Shown here in pieces: positions 1 through 21,079 of a stretch of 64,000 bases of DNA (the first letter of the stretch is position 1; the number at the start of each line of letters is the position of its first letter). The notes beneath the pieces were generated by a model. That model was given only the letters and a program-made list of their open reading frames with translations. It was not told the DNA's origin and made no database searches. The position numbers and the translations under genes are program-made. Origin of the DNA: Gemmatimonadales bacterium (lineage in GTDB: Bacteria > Gemmatimonadota > Glassbacteria > GWA2-58-10); the NCBI GenBank assembly GCA_024278175.1, contig JAJRTS010000085.1, forward strand, positions 59,844-123,843, written 5' to 3'.

Positions 1-392
1 CCTGAATCCCGGCACGGCGGTGGGCTCGCCATCGAATAAGACAAAAACATTAGCCCTGCCGGTTTCGGGTTTCACTGAACTCAACATGGTAGCAGCGCCC
101 GGATGGCGGGATCCATGCCAGGCGGCGCGAAGACTCATCCCTACCCGCGCACCCCAGTCCCCGGCCGGAGATTGGGCGGTCGCGCCGCGGGCAAATAATA
201 AAACGGCCGCCGTAATAAGAACAGCGACCGTAGTTACACTTGAACTTCTCATGCTATCTCGCTCTTTTTCCCGGAATTGCCCGGAATTGACCCTGCCGGG
301 TAGCAACCTGAAACCAGTTACAAGATAATATACCTCAGTAAAAACATTGTTCCGAGGTAATACATCAGCCAACCGGACGTCTTCCAGCACGT

Positions 393-1946
393 TCAGCGCC
401 GTCTGTTCCCGAACAGGCGTTCCAGCCGTTTCGGGTCCATTCTGACGCGGATGGTCTTGCGGTTGGCCATTGTCACCAGCCCGGGCGCTGAATTCGGCGG
501 GCGGCTGATATGCTTGCGCCGGGTGTAATTTACATCGGCCTGGGGCTCTCCCTTGAGCGAACTGTACTGCACGGCCAGGTGGGCGGCGTCCAGCAGGGCC
601 TCGTGGTTGATCTGATCCTGATCCGGGCTGCTGAGCACCACGTGAGAGCCGGAAGAATCGGCCACATGCAACCAGAGGTCACGTCCGCGGGCCACCTTGA
701 ACGTGAGCTCATCGTTGTCCCTGCCGCCCTTGCCCACCATGATCAGGCTCCCGTCGGCGGCCTCGAACCTGCGGTAGGGCGAATGCCGTTGCGGCCCCTG
801 TTTCCCTTTTTTCCCCGCCGCTCGTCCTCTGCTTTCAAGGCCGGCCCCGGCGGCGATCCGATCAAGACTTTCCAGTCCGGCGGCGGAATCGACCGCAGCC
901 AACTGCTGTTCGATTTGCCCGAGCTTTGTTTCGATCCCACCCAGGTTGGCGACGGCAAACCCGGCCCCGCCCCTGAGTTTCCTGCTCTTCTTGAAATAGC
1001 GTTCCATGTTCTGCTGCGGGGAGAGTTTCTCCTCCAGCGGGATCACGCGCAGCTGGTCGGGGGCGTCGGCATAATAGTCCGGCAGCCGGGCCTGAAACTG
1101 ACCCTTGCGGACGTTCCTGAAATTGGCCGCCAGAATGTCGCCGCACTCGCTGTACCAGCTAGCGTTCTCCGCCTCGGCGATAGTTTTGCGATAGCCGGAG
1201 ATCAGCCGCACCAACCGCTTGCGCTCACGATTGAGCTGGCGCCGAAGCTCCGCCCTGCGTCTGTCGAGCGCGCCCTGCGCGGCAAGGCGCGCACAGTAGA
1301 GCTCCGCCGCCCGGCTATAAGATGGAAGTTCCTCGCGTTCCATCAGTTGCGCCAGCGGATCGGATTTTTTATCAACTGCACCATCGATCTGATCCGGTGG
1401 CTTCGGGAAGGAGTATGCCGCCCCCGGAAGCAGACCCCGCGATGAGGCGGCTTTATGATTCATCACAGCGGCCACGTGCTCCTGCTCATCGAGCAGGAAC
1501 AGGTTCCCGCCCACTCCGAACAATTCGACCACCAGCGAACACCTGCCCGTTGCCGAGGAAAAGTCGAGCCGCAGCACCCTGTCGCCGGGAGCCTGAGCCG
1601 CGCGGGCACAGGCCGTGCCGCTAAGGCGCGAGCGCAACTTCATCGCCAGATCGCTGGCGGCCGCACCCTTCGTTCCCGTGCGGCTGTCGGCCAGGTACAG
1701 CGCCACCTGCCCGGTGCGGGTGCAGACCGTGAGGTAACGGGTCTGACCACCGGTGTACAGTTCGACCTGGACCGAGAAATCATCGGGCTGGAACACTTTC
1801 TGGGCGCGAGCACCCTCCAGTTGCGGGATAATCTCGTCCACTATTCTTTTAAACTGGTGGTATTTCACCTGGTTTTTTCCGTTCACATAAAAAAGTGTCA
1901 CACAGTTGACAACTGCAAAGGATTTTACCGTCGGCGCGTAACCCAA
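393..1946 (-). CDS. rqcH: RqcH/FbpA-family (NFACT domain) ribosome quality-control protein
   Basis: 517-aa ORF. NFACT-N-like N-terminus, coiled-coil middle, C-terminal NFACT-R/DUF814-like motif (HVADSSGSHVVL). TGA stop. Confidence 0.7.
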   Translation of the reverse strand: MGYAPTVKSFAVVNCVTLFYVNGKNQVKYHQFKRIVDEIIPQLEGARAQKVFQPDDFSVQVELYTGGQTRYLTVCTRTGQVALYLADSRTGTKGAAASDLAMKLRSRLSGTACARAAQAPGDRVLRLDFSSATGRCSLVVELFGVGGNLFLLDEQEHVAAVMNHKAASSRGLLPGAAYSFPKPPDQIDGAVDKKSDPLAQLMEREELPSYSRAAELYCARLAAQGALDRRRAELRRQLNRERKRLVRLISGYRKTIAEAENASWYSECGDILAANFRNVRKGQFQARLPDYYADAPDQLRVIPLEEKLSPQQNMERYFKKSRKLRGGAGFAVANLGGIETKLGQIEQQLAAVDSAAGLESLDRIAAGAGLESRGRAAGKKGKQGPQRHSPYRRFEAADGSLIMVGKGGRDNDELTFKVARGRDLWLHVADSSGSHVVLSSPDQDQINHEALLDAAHLAVQYSSLKGEPQADVNYTRRKHISRPPNSAPGLVTMANRKTIRVRMDPKRLERLFGNRRR

Positions 1947-1970
1947 TCGCCACCCGAACGGGAAAAAAAG

Positions 1971-2963
1971 TTAGAGTGCTTCGTAGATTTGTTCGAACTC
2001 CTCGACCTGCAGCAGGATCAACTGGGCGCGGGAGATGTCCCGGGAGCGGAAGACCACCGCCTTGTTCTGGACCTCCTCGCTGAACTTTTCCAGGCGGACA
2101 TGGCCGGACCCTGCCAGGTTCTGCAGGGTGATTATCACGTCTTTCACGCCCATTTTCAGCGTACTGGTGGCCTGCTTGACGTATTTATCGAAATCGTAGT
2201 GGCAATAGCCCGCTTTGTCTTCGGGCAGTTGCGCGGCCACGTTACGAAGGTGAAACAACACCTGCTGGGCTTTAGGGGAAAGGGTGGAGAATTTTTTCGA
2301 CGGGGGCGGAAAACCGGGGATATAGCTCATCTTTTCGGCCAGGAACCCGACAAACGCCTTCAGCATGGCGGGGTCATCCACAGTCAGGCGCTCATCACCA
2401 TTACTCTTGTCAAGATTGGCCAGGGAGGTTTGCGCCAGCGCCCGGTAGACTTCCCCCAGGCGTTCTCTGTCCACGGCCAGCACCCGGCAGCCCTCATATA
2501 CCACGTCTTCGAGCTTGATCGAGACGACATTTCCATTTTTCTCCCCTGCCTCGGCCTGCATCAGACTGAGCAGCGAACAGGCGCTGTAGATCAGGCGGCT
2601 GCGCTGGTTGAGCACGCTGACCAGTTTGTTCGTGTTGCGCAGCCGTTCGCTGAGCGAGGAGAACAGCGGCCGAACCTCGCGTGGGATGGCGTTGAGAATG
2701 ACCTGAAATCTCTTGCTGTCCACCAGGCTGAGGGTGGTGGCCTCCACGGCGGTTACAGTGGCCGAGCGCGGCCGCCCGTCGATCAGCGACATTTCCCCGA
2801 AAATACTGCCGGGCCCCAGGGTATCGAGCACTACCCGCTGGCCGTCGATCACCTTACTGACCTCCACACTGCCCCTGATGATGATATAGGCGCTGTCGCC
2901 GGGAGTGTTCTCCCGGATAATCAGGTCTCCGGCCCCATATGCTTTGTTCATGCCGCTTACCAT
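1971..2963 (-). CDS. cyclic nucleotide-binding (CAP-like) domain protein with an uncharacterised C-terminal domain
   Basis: The N-terminal ~120 aa match the cNMP-binding beta-roll (GDSAYIIIRGSVEV...FGEMSLIDGRPRSATVTA). The remaining ~200 aa have no recognisable domain. Confidence 0.7.
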   Translation of the reverse strand: MVSGMNKAYGAGDLIIRENTPGDSAYIIIRGSVEVSKVIDGQRVVLDTLGPGSIFGEMSLIDGRPRSATVTAVEATTLSLVDSKRFQVILNAIPREVRPLFSSLSERLRNTNKLVSVLNQRSRLIYSACSLLSLMQAEAGEKNGNVVSIKLEDVVYEGCRVLAVDRERLGEVYRALAQTSLANLDKSNGDERLTVDDPAMLKAFVGFLAEKMSYIPGFPPPSKKFSTLSPKAQQVLFHLRNVAAQLPEDKAGYCHYDFDKYVKQATSTLKMGVKDVIITLQNLAGSGHVRLEKFSEEVQNKAVVFRSRDISRAQLILLQVEEFEQIYEAL

Positions 2964-3162
2964 CCATCCGGTTGTTTATCGTCAGCTTACCATTACCGGG
3001 AACCTGATCCCGTGGCGGGACAGATCCGTTTGCGCCGTCAACAAAGCCGGCGCGCTATGCCCGGTACTCCTGAGCCGTTCATCCGCTGAAATTTATACAA
3101 GATGACGGTTTATGTCCACACCTGCGCCGGGGCTACTACGGGCGGGAGACTACCTGCGCCGA

Positions 3163-3207
3163 AGACAAAAAGGCGGCCAAACCCGGCGCTTGAGGGTTTG
3201 GCCGCCT
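3163..3207 (-). terminator. rho-independent terminator downstream of tRNA-Leu
   Basis: 14-bp perfect stem (aggcggccaaaccc / gggtttggccgcct) followed on the minus strand by TTTTGTCTTC. Confidence 0.6.
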
Positions 3208-3214
3208 GCTTATC

Positions 3215-3302
3215 TGGTGCCGGGGACGGGAATCGAACCCGTAAGGAGCTAAGCTCCGAGGGATTTTAAGTCCCTTGTGTCTGCCAATTTCACCACCCCG
3301 GC
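3215..3302 (-). tRNA. tRNA-Leu (anticodon UAA)
   Basis: 88-nt cloverleaf read on the minus strand: acceptor GCCGGGG/CCCCGGC, anticodon loop CUUAAAA, long variable arm, T-loop GGTTCGATTCC, encoded CCA. Confidence 0.9.
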
Positions 3303-3355
3303 TTTTTAAGCAGTGTCCGTTTTGACAATAAAAATATCTCCGATTTATCCCCCGG

Positions 3356-4495
3356 TCAATCAGTTTCATCCCCGCCGGTTTCGCCATCGCGCACCAGCTC
3401 GACCACCGCCTCGCTGTGGGGCGTGTGCGGAAAAAAGTCAAACAGGGCGGCCGAGGCGATTCTGTAGTCCTTGAACTTTTTTATATCTTTTGCCAGTTGC
3501 TTCACGTTGCAGCTCACGTAGACTATCAGCTCCGGGGCGATCCGCGTAAGCTCGGTGATCGTTTTCGGGTTCATCCCGCTGCGCGGCGGGTCGAGGATAA
3601 ATGTGAGCCGCCCCGGCAACCCGGCGTTTTTCAGCCGCTTGGCGTCCAGCTCCACGGCCGTCACGTTGTCCACGCCGTTGACCTCGATATTCCTGCGCGC
3701 GGAGACCACCGCCTGGGGAAAGCTCTCGATCACGCTCACCTGTTTGAACAGCTCGCCGTTGATAATCCCGAACGTGCCCACCCCACCGTAGAGGTCCACC
3801 AGATGGCCGCCCGCCGTGTCGTACTTCTTCAGCAGAGAACGCACATAGGTCTGCATCTGCTCGATCATCCGGTCGTTGTTCTGGAAAAATCCCTGGGCGT
3901 TGAACGAGAACTTCCGCCCCAGGATAGTCGACACCAGTTCATCCGTACCCTTGACCACGTAATAATCAGCGGAGATACTGATGTCCGTCTTGCGGGGCAC
4001 GTAGGTGACCAGCACGTTGGCCGCGCTGGTTTGCTGTGCGAACTCGGCGATATGCTCGCGGGCCGGCAGCAGCTTTGTCGAATCCGAGTTGAGCACGATC
4101 GAAACCGAGGAGTCGTCGCCGGGGGTACGCAAAACGGCGTAGCGGTATGTGCCGCAGGTCCTCTTGACATGGAAAAAATCGACTCCGCTAAAAAAGCCGC
4201 GCACTTCCCCGATCAGCGTATTGATTTTTTCGCCGGCGATATGGCAGTGATCGATATCGATAATCCGCTGCCAGCTTCCTTTGCGGCGAAGGCCGATGCC
4301 GCCGGGGTGAAACACCATGTCCATCCGGTTGCGGTAGTTGTACCGGTCACCGGTGAATACTTCGATATGCTCGTGCTCAAGCGCATTGACCAGTTGACGG
4401 CGCTTGCTTTCCACCTGCTGCTCGTAATCCACGTGCTGGAAGCTGCAACCGCCGCATTGGCCGAAAAATGGACAGCGTGGTTCCGCCATCGACAA
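3356..4495 (-). CDS. rlmD: 23S rRNA (uracil-C5)-methyltransferase, RlmD/RumA family
   Basis: N-terminal CPFFGQCGGCSFQH Fe-S motif, SAM-binding DLYGGVGTFG motif and C-terminal catalytic SCN motif typical of the TrmA/RumA family. TTG start. Confidence 0.8.
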   Translation of the reverse strand: MSMAEPRCPFFGQCGGCSFQHVDYEQQVESKRRQLVNALEHEHIEVFTGDRYNYRNRMDMVFHPGGIGLRRKGSWQRIIDIDHCHIAGEKINTLIGEVRGFFSGVDFFHVKRTCGTYRYAVLRTPGDDSSVSIVLNSDSTKLLPAREHIAEFAQQTSAANVLVTYVPRKTDISISADYYVVKGTDELVSTILGRKFSFNAQGFFQNNDRMIEQMQTYVRSLLKKYDTAGGHLVDLYGGVGTFGIINGELFKQVSVIESFPQAVVSARRNIEVNGVDNVTAVELDAKRLKNAGLPGRLTFILDPPRSGMNPKTITELTRIAPELIVYVSCNVKQLAKDIKKFKDYRIASAALFDFFPHTPHSEAVVELVRDGETGGDETD

Positions 4496-4541
4496 TACTC
4501 TCCCGCGTAATTCTGGCTTGATAAAAAGAGCTGAAATCGGC

Positions 4542-5834
4542 TTATTGTTCGCGTTGGGGCCGCCCGTTAACCAACCACTTCACACTCTCGCTGGCCAGGG
4601 AGGTTAAGGTGGAAGGCGAACCGACGATCCGGTGGATGATGTTACGGTAGGTGTCCTGGGCCGATACACTGTCAAACAGGGCCTGACTCAGTTGAGGACT
4701 CCTGCGCGCAGCCTCGAGCACAGGGTCCAGCAGCGAGAAGCGGGCCATCACTCCGGCCATCGCCCGGGCGGCCCGTCCATACCAGAGATCGCCGATCTGC
4801 TCGGCGAAGTCAATTTCCACGCGGCTTAACGCCTCCCGGCTCACTCCACGTTCGAGAATGCTTTTTGCGGCGTACCAGCCGCTAAGCAGCCCCGTGTTGA
4901 TTCCCTTACCCTTGAATGGCCTTAACAGCCCCGCGCTGTCACCGATAGTAATGTAGTTGTCGCCGTAAAAACGCTTGGCCGGGCAGATCGGAAAACTGCC
5001 CTTGTACAGGTCATCAATCTGGTACGGGAAATTCATCACCCGGCTGCAGAGCGATGAATCGAGAAACTCGCGCAGCGTTTTTCCAGTCACCCTCTGGCCT
5101 GCCACCAGGGCGGTAATATGGTTGCCCTTGGGCGTAAGCGCCGCGAACTCGATAGCCGGATCGGCGGGCAGGAAGGCGTGGATATTGTTTTTTTGAGCCT
5201 CGACATTGTGCTGTCCGGGATGAATCTTGGTGATAACCGTTTCCAGAAAATCCGGGGCGCGGTATCCTGTGCGGCGATGAAGGACGTCGCCAAGCTGACG
5301 GTCCAGGCCGAAAGCCCCCACCAGCATGTCGCCCTCGAAGCTGCCGCCCTCGGTATAGACACAGACCCCGCCGTCGCAGAACTCGACGTCGATAACCCGG
5401 TTGGGATAGACCTCCACACCTGCTTTGAGCGCCTGGGTAAGCAGGTAGCGGTCCAGCAGGACCCGGCGGGTAGCCATGGAGTGCTCCGAATGCTCGCCGG
5501 AGTGGTTGGTGAGATGAATGCTGTTATGCTCCGAGTGCAGCCAGTACCCCTCGATAGTGCGCTGCACGAGTTCAACCGGCAGACGAAGCCCCAGGTGCTC
5601 GCTCAGAATAGTCTCTATCGGTGGACTGAGCACTCCCATGCACTGGTTGTAGTGGATGCCGTATTGCTTGTGCTCAAACAGCACTATGCTTAGCTCGCGG
5701 CCCATCATGGCTCCCATGTGCGCCAGTGAAATAGCGCAGGCACACCCGGCCGGGCCTCCCCCGGCTATCAGCACCCGCAGGCTGTCCGGATTGTCCTTAC
5801 CTTTCATCCTCACTCTCCCCCATCCTGTTTCCAA
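4542..5834 (-). CDS. FAD-dependent oxidoreductase (geranylgeranyl reductase-like)
   Basis: N-terminal Rossmann VLIAGGGPAGCACA, internal GDSAG motif. The true start is probably at the MKGK residues. Confidence 0.65.
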   Translation of the reverse strand: METGWGRVRMKGKDNPDSLRVLIAGGGPAGCACAISLAHMGAMMGRELSIVLFEHKQYGIHYNQCMGVLSPPIETILSEHLGLRLPVELVQRTIEGYWLHSEHNSIHLTNHSGEHSEHSMATRRVLLDRYLLTQALKAGVEVYPNRVIDVEFCDGGVCVYTEGGSFEGDMLVGAFGLDRQLGDVLHRRTGYRAPDFLETVITKIHPGQHNVEAQKNNIHAFLPADPAIEFAALTPKGNHITALVAGQRVTGKTLREFLDSSLCSRVMNFPYQIDDLYKGSFPICPAKRFYGDNYITIGDSAGLLRPFKGKGINTGLLSGWYAAKSILERGVSREALSRVEIDFAEQIGDLWYGRAARAMAGVMARFSLLDPVLEAARRSPQLSQALFDSVSAQDTYRNIIHRIVGSPSTLTSLASESVKWLVNGRPQREQ

Positions 5835-7182
5835 ACAACATGATTTTAAGCGATACGGCCACGATTCTGGTCAGCAGGATCGGGTCTAGACAGTTGACGA
5901 ATATTTTACTGTAGCTGGCATCTCCGGTGAACATGTTCCACAGAATCCAGCGCAGCTTACGGCGGCTGTAACCCGTCATCCCGTGATCGCCCCGCGCAAT
6001 AGCCAGGTAGCCGGCCGCCACCGGTTTCAGACGGTAAATTCTGTCGTGGATGGCGAACAATAACCGACCCAGAATATTATCCAGACCAAACATTTTCTTC
6101 ACCCGCCGCGAGTAGTGCCGTTCCAGCCGTTCGCCACGCTCCGGCCCGTGTTCCACCAGTACTCGCGCCGCCAGCTCGGCGGAGCGCAGAGCGCTCTCGA
6201 TACCGTTCTTGTAGTAGCGCGAAACGGCGGCATCACCGATAACCAGCCAGTGACCGCCGGCCAGCACGCCCCCGTCGCCAATCGGCATCCGCGGGGCGCA
6301 GTTGCAACGCACCTTACCCTCGCCGCCGGATAGCTCCCTGATCCGGCCGGCCACAAGCGGGTGCTCCAGGAAGCGTTCCAGATGCTGTGAGCCAAGCCGC
6401 TCGCCGATCAGCGAAACCGTGGCATAACTGCGCTTGGGCGTTATTACCGCGAACCTCACCTGGGGCAGCCCCAGGGCGAATATGCTGATTTGCTGGCCGG
6501 TATTCTCCCCGGCGGCGCTGTCGTAGTGAAGTTCGGCCTGAATGGCGCTGTCGGTGTGCGGTATCCGGTATCCGCCCCCAAGCTTTTCGAACTGCTCGCC
6601 CAGGCTGGAGTTGACCCCGAACGCGCCCACAAGCATGTCGGCGTGGTGGGTATCGCCGTTATGGGCGGTGATCGTCACCGGGTCCGCCGCACCCGGCTCG
6701 ATCCGGACAGCCTCGATCCGCGCCTGAACACTGCGTGCGCCGCACTGGACAGCCTCGTCCAGCAGAAACTGGTCGAAACTGATTGCGCCGGCGCTCTCCT
6801 TCACCGGCCCGTGGCCCCTGAACACCGTGAATATACGCTGTCCTTCCGGTACCGGCATGCTGACCTCGCCACCCAGGGTTACCAGGCCGTAGCTCCTGAT
6901 TTTGGCCCTGATGACCTGGTCCGGGATCCAGAAGCCCAGCTTCTTCATCCCCGCCAGCAGCCCGTCGCTGATCACACCCTGGCAGTAGTTGCAGTGCGCG
7001 GCGCCGCGGCACTCGAAAGCTTTCGGCTCGAAAATAGTCACCCGTACCGCCCGGCCACCCCTGGCGGCTTCCCGGCACAGGCAATAAGCGAAAAAGGTCC
7101 CGGCCGGCCCACCTCCGGCCACCGCCACCCTCATCGGCCGGCTGCCGCTGACAGAATCTCTGGCGCTCAAGAGTCCTCCCAT
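5797..7182 (-). CDS. FAD-dependent oxidoreductase, paralog of the downstream gene
   Basis: VAVAGGGPAGTFFA Rossmann motif and GDAA motif. Tandem duplicate arrangement with the downstream gene. Confidence 0.65.
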   Translation of the reverse strand: MGGLLSARDSVSGSRPMRVAVAGGGPAGTFFAYCLCREAARGGRAVRVTIFEPKAFECRGAAHCNYCQGVISDGLLAGMKKLGFWIPDQVIRAKIRSYGLVTLGGEVSMPVPEGQRIFTVFRGHGPVKESAGAISFDQFLLDEAVQCGARSVQARIEAVRIEPGAADPVTITAHNGDTHHADMLVGAFGVNSSLGEQFEKLGGGYRIPHTDSAIQAELHYDSAAGENTGQQISIFALGLPQVRFAVITPKRSYATVSLIGERLGSQHLERFLEHPLVAGRIRELSGGEGKVRCNCAPRMPIGDGGVLAGGHWLVIGDAAVSRYYKNGIESALRSAELAARVLVEHGPERGERLERHYSRRVKKMFGLDNILGRLLFAIHDRIYRLKPVAAGYLAIARGDHGMTGYSRRKLRWILWNMFTGDASYSKIFVNCLDPILLTRIVAVSLKIMLFGNRMGESEDER

Positions 7183-7311
7183 GCCCGCCCGCAGATACAG
7201 GAACGGCTGGAGAATTGCGGGTGGTTACTGCTTAAACTTAATAAATTATACTATCTCCACGCTTATCAGGCCAGCAATTTTACTAACTTGCCCGCTTGCA
7301 ATAGTGCTACT

Positions 7312-8008
7312 ATGATGAAGCACCCGGACGTTAAGATGACGAATCAAATCAGCGTGGGAGATAAAATGTTGATGCGGCAATTTATAAAACCTCATCTGGT
7401 ATGGCTTTATTCGCTACTTTTTCTGATATGGCCGGTAAAAATTCTTTACTGTGCCGTTAACACCGTCAGCGTGCAGGGAGACAGATTTTTTCTGCATGGA
7501 GAATTGTTCGATATGTGGGGAGTACGGACCGCGAACGCAGTTAAAAACCAGAACACGACCGACAATCTGATTGGTATGCTGGACGATTATAAAGCTCATG
7601 GTATAAACACAATTACGGTGTTCTACCAGGGCAGCAGTGGAGGTAATACCGAGGGTGGCAACGATCCTTTTTCACCCGATGGCACGAGCATCGACTCAGC
7701 CTGCCACAACCGCATGGTACAGATAATAAATGCTTGCAAGGAACGATGAGAAGGGAGTCTTCCCTGATTCCAAAAAGCGGGAATACGCCGCAGAGGCGGA
7801 TGCTGCACTTTCGCGCACGGGCCTCTCGGTATTTTTTCACGCATCTACCTGGTTCCAGTCCGTGCCGCTGCGCTACGACCTGGCCGGAGAAGGTACGGAC
7901 GAAGACCAGGGTATTCACTGGTATTTCGATTATACAGCCCGGAAACCGGGACTCAATCCGCACAGCCTGAAAGAGTTTCCCTGGGAAAGCTGGAAAAATA
8001 CAGAGTGA
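7312..8008 (+). pseudogene. truncated and frameshifted glycoside-hydrolase-like remnant (GH5-superfamily / DUF4038-like N-terminus)
   Basis: Signal/TM followed by VSVQGDRFFLHGELFDMWGVRT and GINTITVFYQGSSGG. The frame breaks at 7747-7749 (…NACKER*) and continues in a +1 frame (7730-8008). Total about 230 aa, against the >400 aa expected. Lies in a lower-GC region. Confidence 0.4.
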
Positions 8009-8317
8009 TTTTTCCTCAAATGAATATTTTAGGCAGATTGAAAGGAAATCATACGCTTTAAAAGTTTTTGCTCCATAAACATAATCACGTCCATTTAGCC
8101 AGCTGGTTTGAAGTATCGAATATGATTCATGTTATAAACTCCTGCATTTAATAAAATTCTTGCAACCCACTTAAGCCATGCCTATATTTTTTGCCTTCGG
8201 GCGGAATTTACAGGTTGTAATATTTTATTGGATACTGTCCCATTACATATTACCGTCCCACCTTTCCAGCTTTGTCGTGGGTCGCCTTTTTCATTGTTGA
8301 AGGAGCCGGTTAACTAA

Positions 8318-15200: not shown

Positions 15201-16199
15201 ATGCAAAAAATCAGGCTCGGCATCATCGGTACCGGCATCATCGTCAGCGAGGCCCATGCTCCGGCGCTTAAGCGGCTGACAGAGCGCTTCGAGGTCACCG
15301 CGCTCTGCAACCGTACACCGGCCAAGGCGGAAGCGCTGGCCAAAGACCTCAGAGTTGACAGCAATAATATATGGCGGGACTGGCGAAAATTCCTGGCCGA
15401 GGCTCCGGTGGACGCCGTGCTGCTGGCTCTGCCGATCGAGCTGAACTACCCCGTGAGCCGGGCCGCCGTCGAGGCGGGCAAGCACGTCCTGTGCGAGAAA
15501 CCCGTGGGCCAGAGCATGGAGGAAGCGCGGGGAGCCGCAGGTCTTGCGGCGGAGTTCGGAGTGACGTTCATGGTGGCCGAGGATATCGAGTTCGTTCCAC
15601 GGTTCGCCCGCGCCGCCGAGCTTGTGCACCGCGGAGAGATCGGCAAACCGACCCTGATCCAGTGGAACGTGTTTAATTTCATGGCGATGAGCAACAAGTA
15701 CGCCCAGACCCGCTGGCGCACCGAACACGTGTTTCCCGGCGGCTACGTGCTCGATGGCGGCGTGCATTTCGTCCACGTGCTGCAGATGCTGGCCGGGCGG
15801 ATCAGCGCGGTAAAAGCGGAAACGAGGACTATCGACTCCCGGCTGGGTAAGGTCGACAGCGCGTTCGCGCTGCTCACCCACGAGAACGGTGTGCTGAGCA
15901 GCCTGAACATGAGCTGGCAGACCCGGGCACCCCAGCCCACGCCGCTGCTGGTGTTCGGAGAAAGGGCGAGCCTGACGGTTTTCGAGGAAAAAATCCTCCG
16001 CACGGACAACGAGAGCGAGGCTGTGCGGGTGATCGCCTTGGAAGACGAGGACGACTACTACCTGCAGTTTGTCGAATTCCACGGGGCAGTTACCGGCAAC
16101 CGGCCCCCCTCGGTAAGCACCGAGGCCTGCGGCCACGACGTGGAAGTTATCCTGGCTATCCTGGAAGCGGCCCGGCGCGGGGGCATTGTCAGCTTGTGA
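15201..16199 (+). CDS. Gfo/Idh/MocA family NAD(P)-dependent oxidoreductase
   Basis: N-terminal Rossmann IRLGIIGTGIIVSEAH and the EKP motif (VLCEKPVGQS). Confidence 0.8.
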   Translation: MQKIRLGIIGTGIIVSEAHAPALKRLTERFEVTALCNRTPAKAEALAKDLRVDSNNIWRDWRKFLAEAPVDAVLLALPIELNYPVSRAAVEAGKHVLCEKPVGQSMEEARGAAGLAAEFGVTFMVAEDIEFVPRFARAAELVHRGEIGKPTLIQWNVFNFMAMSNKYAQTRWRTEHVFPGGYVLDGGVHFVHVLQMLAGRISAVKAETRTIDSRLGKVDSAFALLTHENGVLSSLNMSWQTRAPQPTPLLVFGERASLTVFEEKILRTDNESEAVRVIALEDEDDYYLQFVEFHGAVTGNRPPSVSTEACGHDVEVILAILEAARRGGIVSL

Positions 16200-16258
16200 T
16201 ATTTAAAGTACCGAATCAAACCCGGTTGCGGCAGGCAAGTAAAACCTGCCGGAGACGA

Positions 16259-16295
16259 GCAGGCCGCTTGGTGGAAAAAACCGGCCTGCTTTTGC
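16259..16295 (+). terminator. rho-independent terminator
   Basis: Stem gcaggccg/cggcctgc followed by TTTTGC, 60 nt after the oxidoreductase stop. Confidence 0.55.
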
Positions 16296-16387
16296 TGGCT
16301 GATCCGGAAATAGCCGGATCGCCTATGGGATTGCTCTTCCAATCTCTTAGCTGGGCACCTTAGCGGCACCCACCACCGCCGCCTCCC

Positions 16388-16999
16388 CTACCGCTGCTCT
16401 GGCTCCTGCTTGTCCGGCTCTTTTTCGTCCGGAACGATCGTGCCCTCATCCCGGGCTTCCCCGGCGGTTTGTACGGAGACGTCTGCATCGTTCATCTTAA
16501 CGCCTGGCGGCGTTACCGGCGGCGGGGCGGCCGCATGGCTGCCAGGATAATCCGCTACCGCCGGGGGAGCCTCACCCGCTGCGAAAGGCGAGCCATCCTG
16601 CGGTCCTACGCCCGCGCCGGACGGCCCAGCCGCGCCTTGGCCTGCCTGCCGCTCCTCCAACGGAGCCGGCATCAGCAACCACAACAACACATAGAGGATC
16701 GGCCCGAACATGTAGAAAATAATGCTGATGACGAAAAACACCCTCAGCCAGAGGATCAGCATCGGCGCATCCAACTGGTGGGCGATCCCCGTGCAGACAC
16801 CGGCGATCTTTTTTCCTTCGGCCACCCTGTGCCAGTAGCCATGTGGAGGCCCAAGCCCCCCCGGGCGATCCCCGGCAAGCATGCTGCCGCAATAGCGGCA
16901 TTTAACCGCTTCCGCCCTGATCATCTCAGCACAGTACGGGCATTTTTTCATTTCATTGGCGTCCATTTGATCAATCTCCCGCTGTTTGTTTTTATACAA
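16388..16999 (-). CDS. PspC-domain protein with N-terminal zinc-ribbon
   Basis: CPYC…CRYC zinc ribbon, PspC motif KKIAGVCTGIAHQLDAPMLILWLRVFFVI, TM helix, Pro/Ala-rich tail. Confidence 0.7.
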   Translation of the reverse strand: MYKNKQREIDQMDANEMKKCPYCAEMIRAEAVKCRYCGSMLAGDRPGGLGPPHGYWHRVAEGKKIAGVCTGIAHQLDAPMLILWLRVFFVISIIFYMFGPILYVLLWLLMPAPLEERQAGQGAAGPSGAGVGPQDGSPFAAGEAPPAVADYPGSHAAAPPPVTPPGVKMNDADVSVQTAGEARDEGTIVPDEKEPDKQEPEQR

Positions 17000-17042
17000 T
17001 AACCTGCATTCATTTCAAACCAACCCGGCAACACGCCCGCTC

Positions 17043-17459
17043 TCAGCGGACCACGGGCGCCTGAATCCGGCAACGCTGGGCCAGGAACACCTTGCCCACG
17101 GCGGTCATCACCATCCCGATCACCAGAGCCGCGCCCGCCACCGAGATCCCGATCAGGCTATGGGCCAGGTACACGTCCGCCCAACCGGGCAGCAACAGCC
17201 CCAGCACCGTGCCCACCGTAGCTGCGTAAAACAGGTTACAGCAAACCAGCAGCGCCAGCATCAGCACGCTCACGATCAGCCCCAGCGGACATTCGGCCTT
17301 GCGCACTACCGGGGCACCGGCGTACAGTGCCTCCCGGTGCGCGGCCAGCTCACGGTGCATTATCGTGCGCGTGCGCTCCAGCAGGTCCCCGCCCGGAGGA
17401 CTCACCCGGTATCCATCCAGCAGCTTGCCCAGCAGCTCGTCGTTGATCCTGTCCATCAT
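17043..17459 (-). CDS. putative membrane anti-sigma factor
   Basis: 138 aa, 3 TM helices. Its ATG overlaps the TGA of the upstream sigma reading frame (ATGA), which is classic sigma/anti-sigma coupling. Confidence 0.5.
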   Translation of the reverse strand: MMDRINDELLGKLLDGYRVSPPGGDLLERTRTIMHRELAAHREALYAGAPVVRKAECPLGLIVSVLMLALLVCCNLFYAATVGTVLGLLLPGWADVYLAHSLIGISVAGAALVIGMVMTAVGKVFLAQRCRIQAPVVR

Positions 17460-18124
17460 TCCACCTCCTCGGCCATCCCGGCCATGCCGGTTGCTTCTAT
17501 TTTGCCCTTCAATAATTTCATCCCTCTGAAAATCCTGCTCTTGACCGTCCCGGACGGCAACCCTGTAACCTCCGCTATTTCCACGTCCGTTTTCTAGTGA
17601 TAGAACCGCATCACGATCACTTCTTTCATTTTAACCGGCAGGCTGTCCACGAGTTTCTTCATCCTGTGCGCCTGCAGAATTTTTGCCGCGTCCGCGTCCG
17701 CGTCCTGTGACAAGTCTCTCACCTTGTCAAGCTCCACAAACTCGCGCCGCGAGGCGGAGCGGGCGATATTGCGGCACAGGTTAAGCGCAATCTGAAACAT
17801 CCAGCTCGAAAATTTACAGTCACCCCGGAAACCGTCAATATTGCGCACGATCCGCACCCATGTGTCCTGGAACACGTCCTCGGCGGTTGACTGCTCACCC
17901 ACCATCCGCATGATAAACGCATGCAGCGGCCTGCAGTAGCGATTGAACAACTCGTCCGCGGCAGCGGGATCGCCTTGCCTCAGGCCCTCCACCAAAGCGC
18001 TCTCGTCACTGCCGAACCGACTGTCCACGCGCTTTTCCATTGTATTCCATAAGATCATTATTGCGCTACCGGCGCTCCCGTCGTTGGCGTTCTCAACAGG
18101 TAGGACGCAGCCAGCCCGTTCCAC
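17456..18124 (-). CDS. ECF-type RNA polymerase sigma-70 factor, interrupted by an in-frame TAG at 17594-17596
   Basis: Regions 2 to 4.1 lie in ORF 17594-18124 (…LPVKMKEVIVMRFYH*). The same frame continues after the TAG as KTDV-EIAEVTGLPSGTVKSRIFRGMKLLK (region 4.2 HTH) up to a TGA overlapping the anti-sigma ATG. Frame identity was checked from ORF-track coordinates modulo 3. Confidence 0.7.
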
Positions 18125-18304
18125 GGTTCACTTTTTTCCAGCTTGAACCTGCCGTCCGCAAACCAGTATACAAATGCAGGGCCGCGCGCACAATCACTAC
18201 GGAAGGGCGATTGTCTTTGCCAACCGGAGCAATTATAATAACTCTGGACACGGCCTCCCGGCCCGTTTGCATACCATTTCAACTCAAATCAGCAGGGGTG
18301 CCCG

Positions 18305-19480
18305 ATGCAAATCAGTACAACCCGCTTCCTGATTCTGGCCACGGCGATAATCCTTGCATCCTCACTCACGGCACGCGCGGCGGAGCTGTTCGACCTGCCC
18401 GACGCAGTACATTCGCGCTGGATCTCGTTCGAGAATCCGAGCGGGGCCAAGGGGCAGGGCGGCCGGGAAAACGAGGGCCGCAAGGGCGCGCCCAGTCGGG
18501 TGATCAAGGCCGGTGAGCTTGTGCGCATCGCCGAGATTGAGGGTCCGGGAGTGATCCGTAGAATCTGGATGACCGTGCGGGCGGAACCGCAAATCCTGCG
18601 GGGGATGGTGATCAGGATCTACTGGGACGGCCAGCTGACACCTTCGGTCGAGGCTCCCCTGCAGGACTTTTTCGGAGTTCCGTTCGCCCGCCAGGTGCGG
18701 TTCGAGTCGGCGCTGTTCTCCAACCCGGAGGGGCGCTCGCTTAACTGCTTCATTCCGATGCCGTTTAAGGGCAAGGCCGTGGTGGAGGTGGAGAACCAGT
18801 CGCCGGTCGACTGCAACAGCCTCTTTTTCGACATCAACTACACTATCGGCGACAAGCTACCGGAGGACCTGCCCTATTTCCACGCCTACTGGAGCCGCCG
18901 GAACCCCACAGTGCCCAGGCAGGATTTCGAAATTCTGCCCCGCGTAACGGGCCGCGGGCGGTTCCTGGGCTGTAACGTGGGCATTCGCGCACTGGGTGAC
19001 TACCGAGCCGCGTGGTTCGGCGAGGGGGAGCTGAAAATCTACCTCGACGGCGACCGGGAACATCCCACCCTAGTCGGCACCGGCACGGAGGACCTGGTGG
19101 GCAGCGCCTGGGGCCTGGGACGGTTCGACCATCTTTACCAGGGTTGCCTGCTGGGGGATACCAAAAATGGACTCTGGGGGTTCTACCGCTACCACATCCC
19201 CGACCCGGTCTATTTTTACAGCGATATCCGGGTCACCCTGCAACAGATGTCCGGGGCGATGGCGGAGCGGATCAAGGAAAAAATCAAGCCGGAGAACTAC
19301 CCGGAACTGGTTGTGGGGCACGTCCGTTTCGATCCGGAAATCCACGAGGGCTGGCAGAATTTCGAGGCCCCGCAGGATCTCTGCGCCACCGCCTACTGGT
19401 ACCAGAGTCTGCCCTCGCCGGCCCTGGGACCGCTCCAGGGCTACGAGCAGAGAATGAAAGACCTGCTACTGGATGAATAA
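18305..19480 (+). CDS. secreted DUF2961-family protein (GH172-like)
   Basis: Signal peptide followed by a ~360-aa domain whose length and composition fit DUF2961. Assigned from memory of the family, not from a search. Confidence 0.5.
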   Translation: MQISTTRFLILATAIILASSLTARAAELFDLPDAVHSRWISFENPSGAKGQGGRENEGRKGAPSRVIKAGELVRIAEIEGPGVIRRIWMTVRAEPQILRGMVIRIYWDGQLTPSVEAPLQDFFGVPFARQVRFESALFSNPEGRSLNCFIPMPFKGKAVVEVENQSPVDCNSLFFDINYTIGDKLPEDLPYFHAYWSRRNPTVPRQDFEILPRVTGRGRFLGCNVGIRALGDYRAAWFGEGELKIYLDGDREHPTLVGTGTEDLVGSAWGLGRFDHLYQGCLLGDTKNGLWGFYRYHIPDPVYFYSDIRVTLQQMSGAMAERIKEKIKPENYPELVVGHVRFDPEIHEGWQNFEAPQDLCATAYWYQSLPSPALGPLQGYEQRMKDLLLDE

Positions 19481-19523
19481 ATTTTTCAGGCATTAGCAAA
19501 CGGAATGCCCCACCAATAGGTTG

Positions 19524-20051
19524 TTATTGCTTGCGATCTATATGTTGCTGTTTGGACGACTTCAGGAAGGTTTTTAGACCGGCTCGATATTCTTTGGGGG
19601 ACAGTCTTTTCCCGTTATGTGAATCAACAAAAATGGTCTGTGTTGGACCGCGCAAAAATTCAAATTTATAAGACCTATATAACAACGAGCAAAAAGAGAC
19701 ATCCATTTTATCAGCAAGCGCAAAAATGGTTTTGGGAGTATAGCCGGGGACATCGTATTCACCCCGTCTAACCTTAAAAACCATTGAGACTTTTCTCCCT
19801 TTTGGGGTATAGCCTTCTAAATAAATCTTTTGTTTAAGTGCGGTACCTTTGGGGCTTTTATTTGCGATCTCGAAGGTAATTCTTTGGTTGCGGTTGCTGT
19901 AGTCGGGGCTGGAGTGATCGGCTTCTTCCAAGATTCTAATTTCAAATTTTATTCTATTGCGGTATGAAACTACGGCATCACGAACGACTATAAAAATGGC
20001 ACCTGCTGCGGCAATGGCTGAAAAATAAAGCAACAAGCAATCATAACTCAT
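19524..20051 (-). CDS. hypothetical membrane-anchored protein (AT-rich islet)
   Basis: 175 aa, N-terminal TM helix, Lys-rich, low-GC codon usage, flanked by high-GC genes. Confidence 0.4.
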   Translation of the reverse strand: MSYDCLLLYFSAIAAAGAIFIVVRDAVVSYRNRIKFEIRILEEADHSSPDYSNRNQRITFEIANKSPKGTALKQKIYLEGYTPKGRKVSMVFKVRRGEYDVPGYTPKTIFALADKMDVSFCSLLYRSYKFEFLRGPTQTIFVDSHNGKRLSPKEYRAGLKTFLKSSKQQHIDRKQ

Positions 20052-20171
20052 TTACTGGCCCTATATTGTGTATAAAAAAGAGGGATGGTAGTAACTACCA
20101 CCCCAATTAACCAGACAGGTTGAACAAAGTCAAGAGTTGTTTATTACCATTTGCTATGACATTTCGTTAAC

Positions 20172-20214
20172 AAAAGCGGGGACAGCTGACCGGCCACTCC
20201 CGCTTTTGTTTTCT
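20172..20214. terminator. bidirectional rho-independent terminator
   Basis: Stem aagcggg/cccgctt with T-runs on both strands. Lies 14 nt beyond the stop of the 20228-21079 minus-strand gene. Confidence 0.55.
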
Positions 20215-20227
20215 TATAGGAAAAATA

Positions 20228-21079
20228 TCACTCTACGAACACGGGCGCATAGGCGAACAGTCCGGCGGTATTGAGAAACGCCCGCTCGGCCACGCCGGGA
20301 AGGTACGAGATCCCGAACGCACGCGAACCGACGATCAGCGAGACGGGCAGGGAGTCGTGACGCTGCCCGTCGAACAGGCGCTCCATGTCGCTGCGGGCCA
20401 GCAGCAGAGCACAGGCCACCGCGCCCAGGCTCTGCTCCACCCGCCGGACAACCGCCTCCAAGCTCTCCGCGCTGAACTCGACCTCCCCTATCATGGCGGG
20501 CCAGTGGTCGAAACTGCTCGCCCACTCTACCTGTCCACCGCTGAGCCTGACCACAAAACTGAAATACAGCTCCCGCCTGTCGAACACGCCCAGGATCACG
20601 TGCGAGGAGCCGGCTGCGTGGCCGGAAAAAAATCCGCTCACCTGTCCGTAGTCCAGCGGTCCCCTGTCCAGAGTGGGCTGCGGATAAATCGCGAACGATT
20701 CTCCGGCCAGGGTTCTCAACTCCTCGTTCAACCTGCTCTGGTAGCCGTATTTTTCTTCCCCGGACAGGGGCGTAAGGTTCAGCGTGTCGCACATGCGGAA
20801 ATAGCCCTGCCTGTCGGTGACAACCACCTGTTTCGCTTTGCCGCGCAGCATGGCGAAGAGTTGCCTGGCGCTCTGACGGGCATCGCGCACAGAGCGCACT
20901 TCCAAGCGCAAAGCCTCGCCGCCCAACGTCAGTTGCCGCACTATCCCCTGCTCGTGCCAGAGCACTGCCCGCGGCCGCGAGGGCGAGAGTTTTTCCAGCA
21001 GCGCCAGGAAATTCCCATATCCGGCCGGCTCGATATCGATGATTTCCATGCCCCGTGCTATCACGCGCTCACCTCCCAC
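20228..21079 (-). CDS. hypothetical protein
   Basis: 283-aa ORF with coding-like composition and no recognisable motif. Overlaps the end of the upstream GH gene. Confidence 0.45.
   Translation of the reverse strand: MGGERVIARGMEIIDIEPAGYGNFLALLEKLSPSRPRAVLWHEQGIVRQLTLGGEALRLEVRSVRDARQSARQLFAMLRGKAKQVVVTDRQGYFRMCDTLNLTPLSGEEKYGYQSRLNEELRTLAGESFAIYPQPTLDRGPLDYGQVSGFFSGHAAGSSHVILGVFDRRELYFSFVVRLSGGQVEWASSFDHWPAMIGEVEFSAESLEAVVRRVEQSLGAVACALLLARSDMERLFDGQRHDSLPVSLIVGSRAFGISYLPGVAERAFLNTAGLFAYAPVFVE

Follow-up and report, generated by a model that had tools for sequence, protein, structure and literature searches.

What is to be made of a single in-frame TAG within an ECF sigma factor gene whose reading frame simply continues on the far side of the stop? 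The gene lies on the minus strand of the window (the whole 64,000-nucleotide stretch of DNA that was analysed), and a sequence-only reading of this DNA had offered three options: a recent nonsense mutation, a sequence error, or regulated amber read-through that yields a truncated sigma. The nonsense mutation and the sequence error both fit all of the evidence considered below, while regulated read-through found no support in it.

Translation of minus-strand positions 17456-18124 gives ...VIVMRFYH, the TAG, KTDVEIAEVTGLPSGTVKSRIFRGMKLLKGKIEATGMAGMAEEVE and then a second stop. It had been claimed that the frame past the TAG encodes a region-4 HTH and ends in a TGA overlapping the next gene, and this is borne out both by Pfam and by the sequence. 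Positions 4-54 of the 54 in PF08281 (Sigma70_r4_2) form one unbroken match, but in the read-through protein only. Pfam finds no region 4 in the product up to the TAG, and the 45 residues past it match Sigma70_r4_2 on their own (30.2 bits versus a gathering threshold of 25.7, E 3.5e-7, positions 31-54). When the stop is bridged, the protein clears the NCBIfam model TIGR02937 (sigma70-ECF) with 95.7 bits against a cut-off of 42.9; it is 31-38% identical to labelled ECF sigma factors, with a SigW match at E 3e-18, and with 194 aa and neither region 1.1 nor region 3 it has the size of an ECF sigma. Judged by these matches, the gene is a member of the ECF group by descent, and its product as encoded would be an incomplete ECF sigma.

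The position of the stop within the protein is precise. In ECF sigma factors, sigma-2 is responsible for binding core RNA polymerase and for -10 recognition, and sigma-4 for -35 recognition. In alignments with ECF sigma factors of known structure, the TAG falls on the E of SigW 'YIDELSLIEIG' (5wuq) and on the G of the AlgU/RpoE-type sequence 'REFEGLSYEDIA' (chain 6in7). This is a short loop that precedes the first HTH helix of sigma-4, so the proposed location at the region 4.1/4.2 junction stands, and the entire HTH lies downstream of the stop. The further claim that the TAG replaces one sense codon, with no indel, also holds, since the gene has the same length as its orthologs and the 603-nt alignment with them is gap-free.

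One part of the earlier description needs correction, namely the extent of the ORF to GTG 18124. The likely start is instead ATG 18040 (MEKRVDS...) or the upstream in-frame ATG 18058. The latter gives a 200-codon form, as called in some orthologs, and a gene of 603 nt, equal in length to the orthologs. In L005, a relative with ~92% nucleotide identity to the window, positions 5971-5995 (window 18035-18058) contain one extra nucleotide, which shifts the upstream ATG (MILWNT...) into another frame; the ATG of MGKR/MEKR is in frame in both sequences despite this insertion. Because the insertion unseats the upstream ATG, the MEKR/MGKR start is favoured. This comparison suggests that the gene really has 194 codons and that the 200-aa calls are over-extended. 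The features of the locus are collected in Table 1.

Table 1. Features of the interrupted sigma factor gene and its surroundings, in window coordinates
Feature	Positions	Strand	Details
ECF (group 4) sigma-70 family gene	17456..18040	-	194 sense-codon positions, one now TAG
Sigma-2 domain, residues 31-99, intact	17744..17950	-	PF04542, E 2e-15, profile positions 1-71 of 71
Sigma-4 domain, residues 127-177, split by TAG	17510..17662	-	PF08281
In-frame TAG, codon 149 from MEKR start	17594..17596	-	CAG (Gln) in the DNA of five relatives
45 codons past TAG, untranslated	17459..17593	-	In frame, conserved, no further stops or indels
137-aa (137/138) membrane protein, putative anti-sigma factor	17043..17456	-	ATG overlaps sigma TGA
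Zinc-ribbon and PspC-domain membrane protein, third cluster gene	16388..16999	-	PF04024 (E 1e-13), PF13248
Upstream motif AAGTGAACC-N19-GTCnTACCTGTTGAGAAC	18089..18133	-	Candidate ECF-type (AAC...GTC) autoregulated promoter, intact

What stood at this position before the TAG can be read from its relatives. A search of ~5.8 billion protein clusters yielded ~40 orthologs with 55-85% identity, one of them labelled 'Gemmatimonadota bacterium'. The window's NuoH shares 86-88% identity with proteins whose sources label them 'Candidatus Glassbacteria' or 'Gemmatimonadota', and the DNA is taken to come from an uncultured bacterium of this kind. The orthologs are proteins of 193-209 aa with precomputed region-4 domains, save for two truncated entries, P0007 and P0041. 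The first is the window's own truncated product (176 aa). Its 90% cluster has one other member, P0121, which is 93% identical and full length ('...RFYHQRTDVEIAEITG...'). The sequence-only reading had proposed comparing orthologs at this residue, and had noted that they might all end here and lack region 4. That is not so: the ~40 orthologs are full length with region 4, a sense codon occupies the site throughout, and none has a stop there. The residue is Q in the five closest proteins, P0121 (93%) and P0001-P0004 (85%), and E, N, R or S in the more distant ones. At the level of DNA, the window has CAC TAG AAA where L005, L001, L002, L003 and L004 have CAC/CAT CAG AAA/AGG in gap-free alignments. 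Since CAG is found in all five relatives and no gaps intervene, the lesion is one C-to-T transition, CAG to TAG.

The second truncated entry, P0041, was considered as an independent case of truncation and rejected. It lies on L055 (ENA ctg47591l), where, within positions 1-5000, the GH172, sigma, PspC and GFO/IDH/MocA genes are each split into two to four short calls. Because all of the L055 genes are fragmented, this is a noisy long-read contig, and P0041 is an assembly artefact that provides no evidence of repeated loss.

The sequence beyond the stop bears on the age of the lesion. Relative to four relatives, dN/dS (Nei-Gojobori) is 0.09-0.21 before the TAG and 0.08-0.14 after it. Given this equality, together with the lack of decay, the region past the stop has been constrained as strongly as the region before it for essentially all of the time since divergence, and consequently the stop is either very recent, or not real, or read through. 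A minimal lesion relative to intact orthologs, with no later decay, is the signature of a recent unitary pseudogene or nonsense allele, and it is the pattern found here; the full absence of decay past the stop is also what a consensus error would produce. Taken together, these results point to a single C-to-T change, CAG to TAG, in an ordinary, conserved ECF sigma gene, and this change is probably a real and very recent allele of the strain or population.

The surroundings of the gene are intact. The sigma TGA (17458-17456) overlaps the downstream 137-aa gene by 4 nt if that gene starts at ATG 17459 and by 1 nt if it starts at ATG 17456, the latter being the start used in orthologs of that gene. 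The two genes also overlap in L001, L002, L004 and L005. It had been stated that the sigma gene stays coupled to an anti-sigma gene. The overlap is indeed intact; the 137-aa protein, however, has no match of any kind in either Pfam or NCBIfam, and its putative anti-sigma function is assigned only from position, overlap and conserved synteny. This gene has its own GGAGG (17464-17468), 7 nt ahead of its ATG, and therefore need not rely on ribosomes arriving from the sigma gene. The third gene of the cluster, which encodes the zinc-ribbon/PspC-domain protein, has a partial match to TIGR02978 and itself ends in TAG. In all of the relatives with enough sequence, the same order is found: a divergent GH172 gene, the sigma gene, the overlapping 137-aa gene and the PspC-domain gene. 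The neighbours (GH172, the 137-aa protein, PspC and GH35) are intact and syntenic with the relatives, which argues that the locus does not lie in a badly assembled or decaying stretch.

Upstream of the sigma gene, the two blocks of the motif listed in Table 1 show no variation across six aligned upstream regions, whereas the rest of these regions is ~80% identical. The motif resembles an ECF-type autoregulated promoter and is a candidate for that function. A scan of the minus strand for sigma-70 promoters gave no site that would be acceptable for this gene. On the plus strand, a strong TTGTCT-17-TATAAT (18211-18239) is conserved and promoter-like, and fits the divergent GH172 gene. In the same GH172/sigma spacer, L005 carries an insertion of ~255 bp relative to the window (L005 ~5540-5795, alignment columns 80-335), which holds a long hairpin-like sequence, GAGAGGGAGAGA...TCTCTCCCCCTC, and may be a miniature mobile element.

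Two other stretches of the window were noted in passing. At 19500-20235, ~750 bp are absent from both relatives compared, L005 and L001, whose flanks align with only 27-76 nt between them. This segment holds an orphan 175-aa ORF (19524-20051, minus strand) with no Pfam match and could be a small strain-specific insertion. At 7300-8317, an AT-rich stretch lies between two G+C-rich genes. It contains a 145-aa ORF (7313-7749, plus strand) and then a frame-shifted 92-aa ORF (7730-8008), neither with a Pfam match, followed by a very AT-rich spacer of ~300 nt, and it may be the remnant of a degraded or foreign gene.

Is the T itself real? The strongest competing explanation is that the organism has CAG and that the T entered the contig through a consensus error or from a minor variant in the population that the assembler picked up. 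The lesion is a lone base substitution accompanied by no other damage, selection is the same on both sides of it, and gene fragments created by assembly error do occur within the data for this sigma family, as L055 demonstrates. Furthermore, the sequence comes from one assembly only, with P0007 on one NCBI contig of 126,395 bp. No second sequence closer than ~92% nucleotide identity was found in the protein databases or contig collections, so that the T has a single assembly behind it. When the truncated product and the adjoining GH172 protein were looked up exactly, neither had a recorded contig, and the search of the 90% cluster gave only P0121, from the relative that is ~92% identical in DNA and has CAG. 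A degenerate 39-nt DNA pattern spanning the site matched nothing in the metagenome collection, and protein-guided scans of genome and metagenome collections recovered only distant paralogs and one 85% ortholog; the collection of species-representative genomes does not include this lineage. A scan of the window for other ORF pairs parted by one in-frame stop returned mostly spurious ORFs, as the sequence is G+C-rich.

Against an error stands the kind of damage seen. On L055 all of the genes are hit, whereas the neighbours of the window's sigma gene show no damage. Moreover, for bacterial genomes in general, substitution errors in a consensus are rare compared with real nonsense alleles: a polished assembly is expected to contain far fewer such errors than the genome has real nonsense pseudogenes. 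Because the neighbours are intact and the change is a substitution, unlike the indel damage on L055, a real allele is favoured, and we infer that the organism does carry the T. The artefact is accordingly regarded as unlikely, although it carries appreciable weight.

A quite different explanation is that the T is real and the TAG is decoded to give some full-length sigma, either through basal near-cognate read-through, for instance by tRNA-Gln with the ancestral residue restored, or through an amber suppressor tRNA encoded elsewhere in the genome. The stop would then act as an attenuator, keeping the level of sigma low and producing an excess of a sigma-2-only fragment. In favour of this model, the frame past the TAG is perfectly kept and still overlaps the next gene. 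In addition, the base after the stop is A, according to older work on suppression in E. coli a relatively permissive context. However, the stop is present in none of the ~40 orthologs, and thus there is no visible selection for it.

The use of TAG in this DNA also speaks against decoding. The claim that TAG is a real stop elsewhere is well founded: it closes 13 of the 50 non-overlapping long ORFs in the window. These include nuoH-, nuoG-, lpdA-, pntA- and PFK-like genes as well as the cluster's own PspC gene, and Pfam matches run to the ends of the profiles (position 298 of 298 for the nuoH-like protein and 110 of 110 for the dimerisation domain of the lpdA-like protein). Reassignment of TAG, whether as a sense codon or for pyrrolysine, was therefore rejected, since many well-matched genes end in it. 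With TAG ending about a quarter of the genes, respiratory-complex genes among them, an efficient suppressor would be costly. The earlier reading had also suggested a check for suppressor tRNAs in the genome; within the 64-kb window, neither a suppressor nor a pyrrolysine tRNA was found, and no tRNA has a CUA anticodon, the only tRNAs being tRNA-Leu(taa) and tRNA-Thr(cgt). No Rfam family matches positions 16000-19000 even at E <= 1, and the fold of the 100 nt of RNA past the TAG is no more stable than that of shuffled sequences (z = -0.07). Given the absence of the stop from orthologs, the null results for tRNA, Rfam and fold, and the ordinary use of TAG, no positive evidence is left for reassignment, pyrrolysine, a suppressor or programmed read-through, and a read-through element was rejected on the basis of the Rfam and fold results. 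Decoding of the TAG in any form is thus considered improbable. More improbable still is the specific version in which the amber is partly decoded to give a trickle of full sigma while the sigma-2 fragment titrates core polymerase or the partner membrane protein. If it were true, partial decoding would attenuate an envelope-stress sigma factor at the level of translation, from within its own gene.

The least credible proposal is a split sigma, in which the sigma-2 fragment would act together, in trans, with a 42-aa HTH peptide restarted at GTG 17584: this in-frame GTG lies 10 nt past the TAG, termination-reinitiation is conceivable, and reinitiating ribosomes would also reach the overlap with the next gene, but the break falls within the sigma-4 fold rather than between domains, all of the orthologs are single genes with none split, and, because the GTG has no Shine-Dalgarno ahead of it and the peptide lacks half of sigma-4 (without its first two helices, neither folding nor beta-flap binding would be likely), the weight given to this model is very low. 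Even taken jointly, all of the scenarios in which the stop is functionally decoded or the sigma works in two pieces are left with only a slender share of the probability.

The preferred explanation, a real and recent nonsense allele, would have simple consequences. Translation would end after the first part of sigma-4, giving a product of ~148 aa in which sigma-2 is kept and the whole HTH is lost. A product without the sigma-4 HTH cannot read -35 elements, so the truncated sigma should be unable to direct transcription of its regulon, and the allele should be null or, at most, encode a weak competitor for core polymerase; the domain architecture, in other words, predicts loss of function. The downstream membrane protein could still be made, since its gene has a strong ribosome-binding site of its own. 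In the normal course, ECF sigma factors are kept inactive and come into use only under particular envelope stress, and thus such a knockout can persist without cost. No dedicated mechanism would be needed.

If the change is real, the strain has lost one envelope-stress sigma factor, which is a routine event; if it is an error, one base of the assembly has to be corrected. In neither case does anything new arise for the study of decoding or of sigma factors. There is a practical caution for annotation: the right flag for the gene is pseudogene or 'internal stop', and it should not be listed as a short sigma-2-only protein.

Three known systems bear comparison with the locus. In Bacillus subtilis, SigO-RsoA (YvrI-YvrHa) carries sigma-2-like and sigma-4-like functions on two polypeptides. 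There the split lies between the domains, and each of the two parts is encoded by a conserved gene with translation signals of its own. In the window, by contrast, the break is inside sigma-4, it is found in one genome only, and the second part has no ribosome-binding site. A closer resemblance is to RpoE-RseA and SigW-RsiW (PDB 1or7, 5wuq). As in those systems, the window gene specifies a two-domain sigma (sigma-2 plus sigma-4) of ~190 aa, and, as in ECF operons generally, it overlaps a following gene for a small membrane protein and has a conserved AAC...GTC motif upstream. The window differs from RpoE-RseA and SigW-RsiW in that its sigma is interrupted, its partner has no anti-sigma domain recognisable in Pfam or NCBIfam, and its third gene encodes a zinc-ribbon/PspC-domain protein.

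For the lesion itself, the nearest parallel is rpoS of E. coli, one of the alternative sigma genes for which natural nonsense alleles are well documented, and such records count in favour of a real change here. K-12 stocks carry a TAG at codon 33 of rpoS, a codon that is CAG, GAG or TAG depending on the strain, and the wild isolate N99-4390 has a premature stop at codon 243 that truncates the C-terminus, with loss of RpoS activity (PMC2700278). The two cases are not identical: rpoS encodes a group 2 sigma and the window gene an ECF sigma, and the rpoS alleles were confirmed in cultured strains with measured phenotypes, whereas here a single uncultured assembly supplies sequence alone. In both, however, a non-essential alternative sigma gene has gained a stop through one base change. 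In rpoS, activity is lost when the C-terminus is truncated so as to remove region 4, and such alleles arise and persist readily. The TAG in the window is likewise a routine nonsense change of one base in an otherwise unremarkable ECF sigma gene.
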